A stretch of DNA of 221 nt from Escherichia coli. GTDB lineage: Bacteria > Pseudomonadota > Gammaproteobacteria > Enterobacterales > Enterobacteriaceae. Shown piece after piece: positions 1-221 of this stretch. Numbering within the stretch: the stretch's first letter is position 1; the number at the start of each line of letters is the position of its first letter. The notes beneath the pieces are model-generated. The model saw nothing but the letters and a program-made list of their open reading frames with translations, was not told the origin of the DNA and ran no database searches. The translations under genes were made by a program, and so were the position numbers. Location: the NCBI RefSeq assembly GCF_003334305.1, contig NZ_QOWS01000089.1. One strand, written 5' to 3'.

Positions 1-181
1 ATTGCTTCAAGAAATCGAGATGTGTTTCCCCGAAATCCTCTATATCTTCCCAACTTTCTGCACCAGAAATAACGGCAAAAATAGTCAATAGTAGGATGCC
101 TGACAATTTATGCTCTACTTTCCAGGCTTATCTGTAATCGGGAATAATAGAAATATGTTCCATCAATTTTTTAAGTTCCAT
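1..181 (-). pseudogene. ISAs1-family transposase (H-repeat-associated-protein-like), 5' portion; frame interrupted by in-frame TAA at 130-128; 3' end lies beyond position 1
   Basis: Minus-strand ATG at 181-179 with an AAGGTG SD 5 nt upstream. Translation is MELKKLMEHISIIPDYR, then TAA (130-128), then the same frame is open for 42 codons to the window edge ([42 protein letters not shown]). Both parts match, from memory, the N-terminus of E. coli H-rpt/ISAs1 transposases ([33 protein letters not shown]...[19 protein letters not shown]), where the stop position is Gln. No alignment was run. Confidence 0.6.
128..181 (-). CDS. Literal 17-codon ORF (MELKKLMEHISIIPDYR*), interpreted as the truncated N-terminal fragment of the transposase rather than an independent gene
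   Basis: ATG 181-179, SD AAGGTG at 192-187, stop TAA at 130-128. A second in-frame ATG lies at 163-161. Any product would be a non-functional transposase fragment. Confidence 0.3.
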   Translation of the reverse strand: MELKKLMEHISIIPDYR

Positions 182-186
182 TTGTT

Positions 187-192
187 CACCTT
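187..192 (-). promoter_or_regulatory. Shine-Dalgarno sequence (AAGGTG) for the transposase start codon
   Basis: Plus-strand CACCTT at 187-192 is AAGGTG on the minus strand; 5-nt spacer (AACAA) to the ATG at 181-179. Confidence 0.6.
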
Positions 193-200
193 ATTTATGT

Positions 201-206
201 AAGGAG
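201..206 (+). promoter_or_regulatory. Shine-Dalgarno sequence (AAGGAG) for a plus-strand start at 216
   Basis: Perfect AAGGAG core, 9-nt spacer (TATTTGATC), then ATG at 216-218. It may instead be a chance match inside the IS terminal region. Confidence 0.4.
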
Positions 207-215
207 TATTTGATC

Positions 216-221
216 ATGTAT
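216..221 (+). CDS. Possible 5' end of an unidentified plus-strand ORF (only ATG TAT visible), divergent from the transposase
   Basis: ATG at 216-218 with a strong SD at optimal spacing. Two codons are visible, so coding potential and product cannot be assessed. Confidence 0.3.

Follow-up and report, generated by a model that had tools for sequence, protein, structure and literature searches.

In the 221-nt stretch of Escherichia coli DNA analyzed in this work (hereafter the window), the heptamer ATGGAAC occurs twice on the minus strand, at positions 181-175 and 163-157, and no further occurrence is present; the question that this locus raises is which of the two ATG codons is the start of the gene that is read from this strand. 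Translation confirmed that both ATGs are in frame and 18 nt apart, so that they read MELKKL-MEH. The original prediction had favoured the first ATG (ATG1, Met1; 179-181), on the ground that only this one is preceded by a Shine-Dalgarno (SD) motif, and had considered the second (ATG2, Met7; 161-163) as a source of ambiguity for annotation. Taken as a whole, the evidence is best explained if the window carries a copy of ybfL in which the SD sequence would drive initiation at ATG1 and ATG2 would encode an internal methionine; we assign to this reading a probability of about 0.9.

Of the 5,426 E. coli genomes that are complete, 5,198 contain a match to the window (median, four copies per genome), and the best site is at least 99% identical to it in 2,662 E. 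coli records; all the full-length matches listed for the complete E. coli genomes fall under the annotation 'ISAs1 family transposase'. The match is of 100% in K-12, as in thousands of E. coli chromosomes, and in K-12 it is located in the RhsC element, in a context formed by rhsC, ybfB, an Rhs core fragment, ybfC, ybfQ, the window gene, ybfD, ybgA and phrB. The RefSeq annotation of K-12 describes the gene as an 'ISAs1 family transposase' CDS, a pseudogene with an 'internal stop', whose annotated start corresponds to window position 181. The gene is unnamed in the K-12 record, where the flanking ybfQ and ybfD are named, and from the K-12 map we take it to be ybfL. The window thereby corresponds to the 5' end of ybfL, a known inactivated transposase gene of the ISAs1 family (ISEc1 / H-repeat), which is the middle one of three tandem defective copies of this kind in RhsC of E. 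coli K-12; its first 60 codons occupy positions 1-181 of the minus strand, as given by the translation, the RefSeq CDS and the profile matches described below.

The protein encoded by ybfL, repaired at codon 18 for the computation of profile scores, matches the NCBIfam model NF033564 'ISAs1 family transposase' with 414.6 bits (cut-off 70) over the complete profile (1-314 of 314). Residues 8-94 correspond to PF13808 (DDE_Tnp_1_assoc; E 1e-31) and residues 102-343 to PF01609 (DDE_Tnp_1; E 7e-31). Among 76 sequences D109 and E306 are invariant and D172 is conserved in at least 90%; the three residues are present in ybfL, and we infer that they form the DDE triad. The match to the curated model, the domain architecture, the acidic residues, and an element of ~1.2-1.3 kb with short terminal inverted repeats place ybfL in the ISAs1 family. 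An Rfam scan of the window gave no match at E <= 1.

The ybfL element has a length of 1,290 bp and both ends are present, IRL CAGGGAAAGATCACG and IRR CAGGGAAAGATTACG, with 14 of 15 positions matching; these repeats were located by a direct motif search, after a generic inverted-repeat search had missed them. The comparison of left ends revealed that the terminus CAGGGAAAGATCACG is common to independent insertions and lies 143-144 nt upstream of ATG1, whereas the complementary right terminus is found 10 nt past the stop codon, for an element length of 1,290-1,291 bp. For the copy in the window the left terminus falls beyond the stretch, at about window coordinate 324, and positions 182-221 (minus strand) are the last 40 of the 143 nt of the untranslated left end. 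Inspection of the 12-nt flanks of ydcC, of the L029 copy and of the Dickeya copy showed no direct repeat, and ybfL adjoins other H-repeat fragments; a target-site duplication is typical of the ISAs1 family, but not defining. The H-repeats have been listed as insertion sequences although their transposition has not been observed (PMC3032704).

Several other features of these elements were observed. The H-repeat copies show nesting: the ybfL copy starts, with its left end CAGGGAAAGATCA, at the point where the ybfQ copy is interrupted (L001 3035-4324 and flanks), and immediately past the right end of this ybfL copy comes the ybfD copy, which does not have a left terminus of its own. The left end in Salmonella (L011, 376-400) is likewise preceded by a fragment of the 5' region of another copy, with ATATGATCAAATATCTCCTG joined to CAGGG. 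The sequence GATCA is present at the terminus and again in the conserved block ATGATCAAAT, ~35 nt before ATG1. Near-identical ISEc1 copies (L018, L021) appeared on short contigs of metagenome-assembled genomes labelled Streptococcus sp. and Flavobacterium psychrophilum; these labels most likely reflect binning contamination by Escherichia DNA. Finally, an E. coli copy (L008, P0047) and P0042 are 82% identical overall, with an N-terminus that has diverged strongly (MSIQSLLDYISVTPDIRQQGKVKHKLSAILF) and with GTG as the start codon, a pattern that suggests a mosaic or a recombinant between ISAs1 sublineages.

The original prediction hinted that the copy in the window is not intact, and this was borne out. 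The whole frame of ybfL comprises 378 codons and its single lesion is a TAA at codon 18 (130-128, minus strand), where the paralogues have CAA (Gln); the reading frame of a transposase is interrupted at this point, in agreement with the 'internal stop' of RefSeq. The minus strand reads TAA GGT GAA CAA ATG GAA CTT AAA AAA TTG ATG GAA CAT ATT TCT ATT ATT CCC GAT TAC AGA TAA GCC TGG, and its translation from ATG1 is MELKKLMEHISIIPDYR followed by the stop. Translation of ybfL from ATG1 would end at codon 18 and yield a 17-residue peptide, and from ATG2 one of 11 residues; because this TAA stops translation from either ATG, the choice of start hardly matters for the product of ybfL itself. It had been anticipated that annotation pipelines may choose either ATG, but on the ybfL allele the ab initio callers bypass both and begin at the TTG of codon 32 (86-88, minus strand), 3' of the premature stop, where database proteins are found to start.

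Regarding the choice between the two ATGs, ATG1 is the first start codon past an in-frame TAA (193-191; YMIKYSLHK-stop-GEQMELKK in translation), with none in between, and it is preceded at a distance of 4 nt by the SD sequence AAGGTGA (186-192, minus strand). When the 20 nt before each ATG were paired with the anti-SD sequence, the duplex energy was -8.7 kcal/mol for ATG1 and -3.3 kcal/mol for ATG2, in agreement with the claim that only the first ATG has an SD. The same difference is evident in ybfD, ybfQ, E. albertii, Salmonella, Dickeya and Citrobacter, with -9.2 to -9.5 kcal/mol before start 1 versus -1.3 to -4.5 kcal/mol before ATG2, the latter range referring to the other copies with ATG at codon 7. 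The block TAAGGAGA is found 4-6 nt before the ATG or GTG of position 1 in E. coli, E. albertii, Salmonella, Citrobacter, Dickeya and Entomohabitans, and Serratia and Cedecea show AATGGAA at this place. The AAGGTGA of ybfL is a derived variant, given that the Escherichia consensus is AAGGAGA with a spacer longer by 1 nt than that of ybfL. Most of the lineages compared have both the SD block and a start codon at this place. A strong SD is not universal across the family, since it is weak or absent before start 1 in three diverged copies (L007, L009 and L010; -1.0 to -3.5 kcal/mol). A scan of species-representative genomes with a degenerate pattern gave new lineages for these comparisons, its 14 loci being too few for rigorous covariation. 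A sigma-70 scan around the start detected no promoter-like minus-strand site upstream of ATG1 in the stretch scanned, and the counts were near the shuffle expectation.

The codons located between the two ATGs also behave as coding sequence. ATG or GTG is found at position 1 in all the intact homologues examined; in a set of 54 full-length close homologues M occupies position 1 throughout (54/54), L, I or F is found at position 3, and all but one (53/54) have L at position 6. At the DNA level these residues are encoded by different codons, TTG, TTA and CTG for Leu6, and CTT, TTA, ATC and ATT for position 3; the changes are synonymous or conservative, and therefore the codons upstream of Met7 look translated. 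Position 7 is less constrained, with M in 49 and L in 5 of the same 54 homologues. In L007, L008 and L009 codon 7 is CTT or TTA (Leu), and two of these three copies have GTG at position 1, that of L007 immediately after an in-frame stop. Among 125 family representatives with 37-54% identity, column 7 is occupied mainly by other hydrophobic residues (L 26, V 15, I 14, F 10, M 9), and the segment that precedes the conserved Pro of the PDPR motif has a modal length of 16 residues, compared with 13 in the query. In the AlphaFold2 model obtained from 76 sequences (mean pLDDT 91, pTM 0.88; pLDDT 87 for residues 1-10), helix 1 is formed by residues 3-10 and Met7 lies in the middle of it.

Annotated N-termini point in the same direction: RefSeq starts the intact ydcC (378 aa), as well as the pseudogene ybfL, at Met1, and the 378-aa protein cluster includes 38,559 members versus 9 and 2 for the 372-aa clusters. 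Homologues that consistently start at the second Met with a conserved SD before it, the case that would have overturned the original prediction, were not found in this comparison. The preference for Met1 is thus supported by the SD, by its conservation, by the coding pattern upstream of Met7, by the Leu at codon 7, by the model and by RefSeq/PGAP, and we infer that ribosomes very probably use Met1 as the physiological start of the intact copies. A search of the literature found no experimental start-site evidence for ydcC, yhhI, ybfD or ybfL, and these genes are absent from the N-terminomics supplements. According to this mechanism, ribosomes would be recruited by AAGGTGA (192-186) and would initiate at ATG1 (181-179), and ATG2 (163-161) would be read as an internal Met, a hydrophobic residue of the first α-helix in the DDE_Tnp_1_assoc domain. 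Low-level, SD-independent initiation may occur at ATG2 or at the TTG of codon 6; for ATG2 it is conceivable because the stretch before it is A-rich and probably unstructured. An observation that speaks against initiation at ATG1 is that the ORF from Met7 has stayed intact in copies where an A5 frameshift separates the two ATGs.

These copies are related to the origin of the annotations that begin at Met7. Four of the proteins retrieved begin with MEHISII, and the Met7 calls P0001, P0009, P0040, P0132 and WP_047089717.1 trace to copies in which Met1 is disabled, either by the shortening of an A6 run to A5 or by the change of ATG to ATA. In P0009 (E. albertii, L002) the run between the ATGs is A5 instead of A6, and ATG1 opens MELKN followed by a TGA that overlaps ATG2; in P0040 (L005) ATA replaces ATG1. 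The copy of the E. albertii type strain (L014) has A5 too and its SD is decayed, and L027 carries a TAG at codon 6. The E. coli strains CRE1540 (L029) and PI12 harbour A5 copies whose IS left end is complete and whose PGAP CDS starts at ATG2; the CRE1540 copy gives WP_047089717.1, of 372 aa, and has no pseudogene flag. The anticipated choice of either start by the pipelines is correct insofar as Met7 calls exist, but these occur only where Met1 is disabled.

The alternative that best survives takes this run as a frameshift-prone switch. In the window the A6 run forms codons 4 and 5 (AAA AAA; 167-172, minus strand), and A5 is found in L002 (595-599), L014, L029 (1431-1435) and L030 (1431-1435), copies of E. 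albertii and E. coli that are otherwise mostly full-length. With A5, ATG1 would open only MELKN, and from the TGA overlapping ATG2 (AUUGAUGG) ribosomes would reinitiate to give a low level of a 372-aa transposase; ATG2 would act as a back-up that yields the transposase minus its first six residues. In its favour, A5 is present in at least four copies of two species and in different IS backgrounds, and the complete 372-codon ORF is kept in three of the four. Moreover, dS between L002 and the E. coli A6 copies is 0.16-0.18 and between L002 and L014 it is 0.28; being nearer to the A6 copies than to the other A5 copy, L002 suggests independent deletions, and the loss of one A appears, from the sequences compared, to be recurrent. 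Stop-start overlaps of the UGAUG type are an established geometry for translational coupling, which the TGA/ATG2 overlap matches. On the other hand, this overlap arises automatically from Leu(TTR)-Met and selection is not needed to account for it, six A's are short for efficient slippage, and homopolymer indels are common neutral lesions, L030 being truncated further. The A5 alleles are infrequent, being present in 19 of the 5,203 E. coli records that fall within the relevant identity band, and the 372-aa clusters are small beside that of the 378-aa protein. The dN/dS of the A5/Met7 copies (0.09-0.14) is uninformative as a test of function, given that ybfL, a certain pseudogene, shows an equally low value (0.08). 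We consider it unlikely that the run is a switch of this kind, and equally doubtful that ATG2 serves as its back-up start. If true, mutation would switch an ISAs1 transposase between its normal form and one that is altered or of low output.

Even less probable is that translation truly starts at Met7, or that Met7 is an additional physiological start, so that the 372-aa protein would be made alone or together with the 378-aa form as a pair of proteoforms. ATG2 is in frame and lies behind an A-rich stretch that is probably open, the PF13808 match starts at residue 8, and 372-aa proteins beginning with MEHISII do exist in the databases and in RefSeq (P0009, P0040 and WP_047089717.1). Nevertheless, in all the 372-aa calls that were traced Met1 had been disabled through mutation; ATG2 has no ribosome-binding signal of its own, as indicated by the -3.3 kcal/mol of its duplex, and as a start codon it is not conserved among the homologues, the diverged copies with CTT or TTA at codon 7 being unable to start there. 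In addition, codons 3 and 6 are kept at the protein level via synonymous change, half of the predicted helix 1 would be lost, and an N-terminus with only 7-8 residues before the Pro of PDPR, as a Met7 start implies, is found in 2 of the 125 family representatives, one of which is itself an E. coli MEHISII call.

It is very improbable that the two heptamers are a DNA-level element, such as a small duplication or a direct repeat that binds a protein close to the end of the IS, for although the repeat extends to 10 nt with 9/10 identity at an 18-nt spacing (TATGTTCCAT / TAAGTTCCAT) and this heptamer appeared twice in 0 of 200 shuffles of the window, the latter result comes from a post hoc test, 633 of 2000 dinucleotide shuffles (32%) contained some exact 7-mer repeated directly within 30 nt, the site lies 143 nt inside the IS and away from its terminal repeats, and the first copy is not conserved as DNA, given that ATGAAT, ATGGAT, GTGAAT, GTGAGT or ATGAGC replace it in other lineages (Salmonella, Citrobacter, Serratia, Dickeya and diverged copies) where the protein pattern is kept. 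Because these lineages do not conserve the repeat in their DNA, the repeated heptamer is, as judged from sequence comparison, a coincidence produced by the occurrence of Met-Glu twice in the Escherichia lineage and not a repeat element.

Upstream of ATG1, the anti-SD-like sequence CTCCTTA (200-206, minus strand) is complementary to TAAGG(A/T)G (193-187), and a local hairpin is predicted from both. The same prediction was obtained for ybfD, Salmonella, Dickeya, Citrobacter and Serratia, where z-scores range from -0.9 to -2.5, and in Serratia both arms differ in a complementary manner. In the ybfL copy it is weakened by a U-U mismatch (z = 0.14). In most lineages the pairing probability of the SD was not above that of upstream-shuffled controls, the observed value being attained by 20 to 235 of 300 shuffles, and the MAFFT alignment did not place the hairpin arms in a common register. 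A hairpin formed by CTCCTTA and TAAGGAG that would occlude the ribosome-binding site in read-through transcripts is thus an unproven prediction of the folding model. On the opposite strand, AAGGAG (201-206) followed 9 nt later by an ATG (216-218) was considered as the start of a divergent gene and was rejected; it opens only MYKL before a stop codon, and this ATG is absent in Salmonella.

The ISEc1 / H-repeat genes of E. coli, namely the intact ydcC and yhhI and the defective ybfD, ybfQ and ybfL of RhsC, belong to the same element, with 91-100% identity at the DNA level. They share the N-terminus MELKKLMEHISIIPDYRQ, the arrangement of SD and ATG1, the length of 1,290-1,291 bp and the terminal inverted repeats; the TAA at codon 18 distinguishes ybfL from the other copies. 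ybfL and ybfQ, in turn, depart from the Escherichia consensus AAGGAGAACAAA-ATG in having AAGGTG for AAGGAG and a spacer shorter by 1 nt (window 186-192 compared with L001 2919-2926, which is ybfD, and with L022); this shared derived ribosome-binding site suggests that the two RhsC copies are related through duplication or gene conversion. As other members of the ISAs1 family, these elements have a single transposase ORF of ~375 aa with a DDE domain, an N-terminal DDE_Tnp_1_assoc domain and a short helix before PDPR; in contrast, Met at position 7 is peculiar to the enterobacterial ISEc1-like branch, and elsewhere L, V, I or F are found.

IS50 (Tn5), which produces a transposase/inhibitor pair, likewise has two in-frame ATGs close to the 5' end of its transposase gene. 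In IS50 the second start is 55 codons downstream and gives a shorter product that is known to act as an inhibitor; in ybfL, by contrast, ATG2 is only 6 codons downstream, is not preceded by an SD, is not conserved and lies within a predicted helix. An IS50-like dual-start system at ybfL is not supported by the evidence. Similarly, the presence of CTCCTTA ~6 nt upstream of TAAGGAG, with pairing predicted in several lineages, resembles the 'fold-back inhibition' of IS10/IS50; unlike the sequestration of the ribosome-binding site in those elements, the ISEc1 hairpin is not statistically supported and is weakened in the ybfL copy.

The two ATGs raise, as the original prediction held, a question of start-site ambiguity and not a new feature; it is an ordinary annotation question, settled in favour of the first ATG. 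Since ybfL is a long-annotated pseudogene of E. coli K-12 whose start was already known, and the reference annotation already uses the start supported here, the finding in itself matters very little. Its consequences concern the use of annotated N-termini: the TTG-initiated ORF called on the ybfL allele is spurious, being downstream of a nonsense codon, and the 372-aa 'ISAs1/ISEc1 family transposase' entries beginning with MEHISII are unfit as start evidence for intact genes, because they are the products of damaged copies with a frameshift in the A run or a mutated ATG1.
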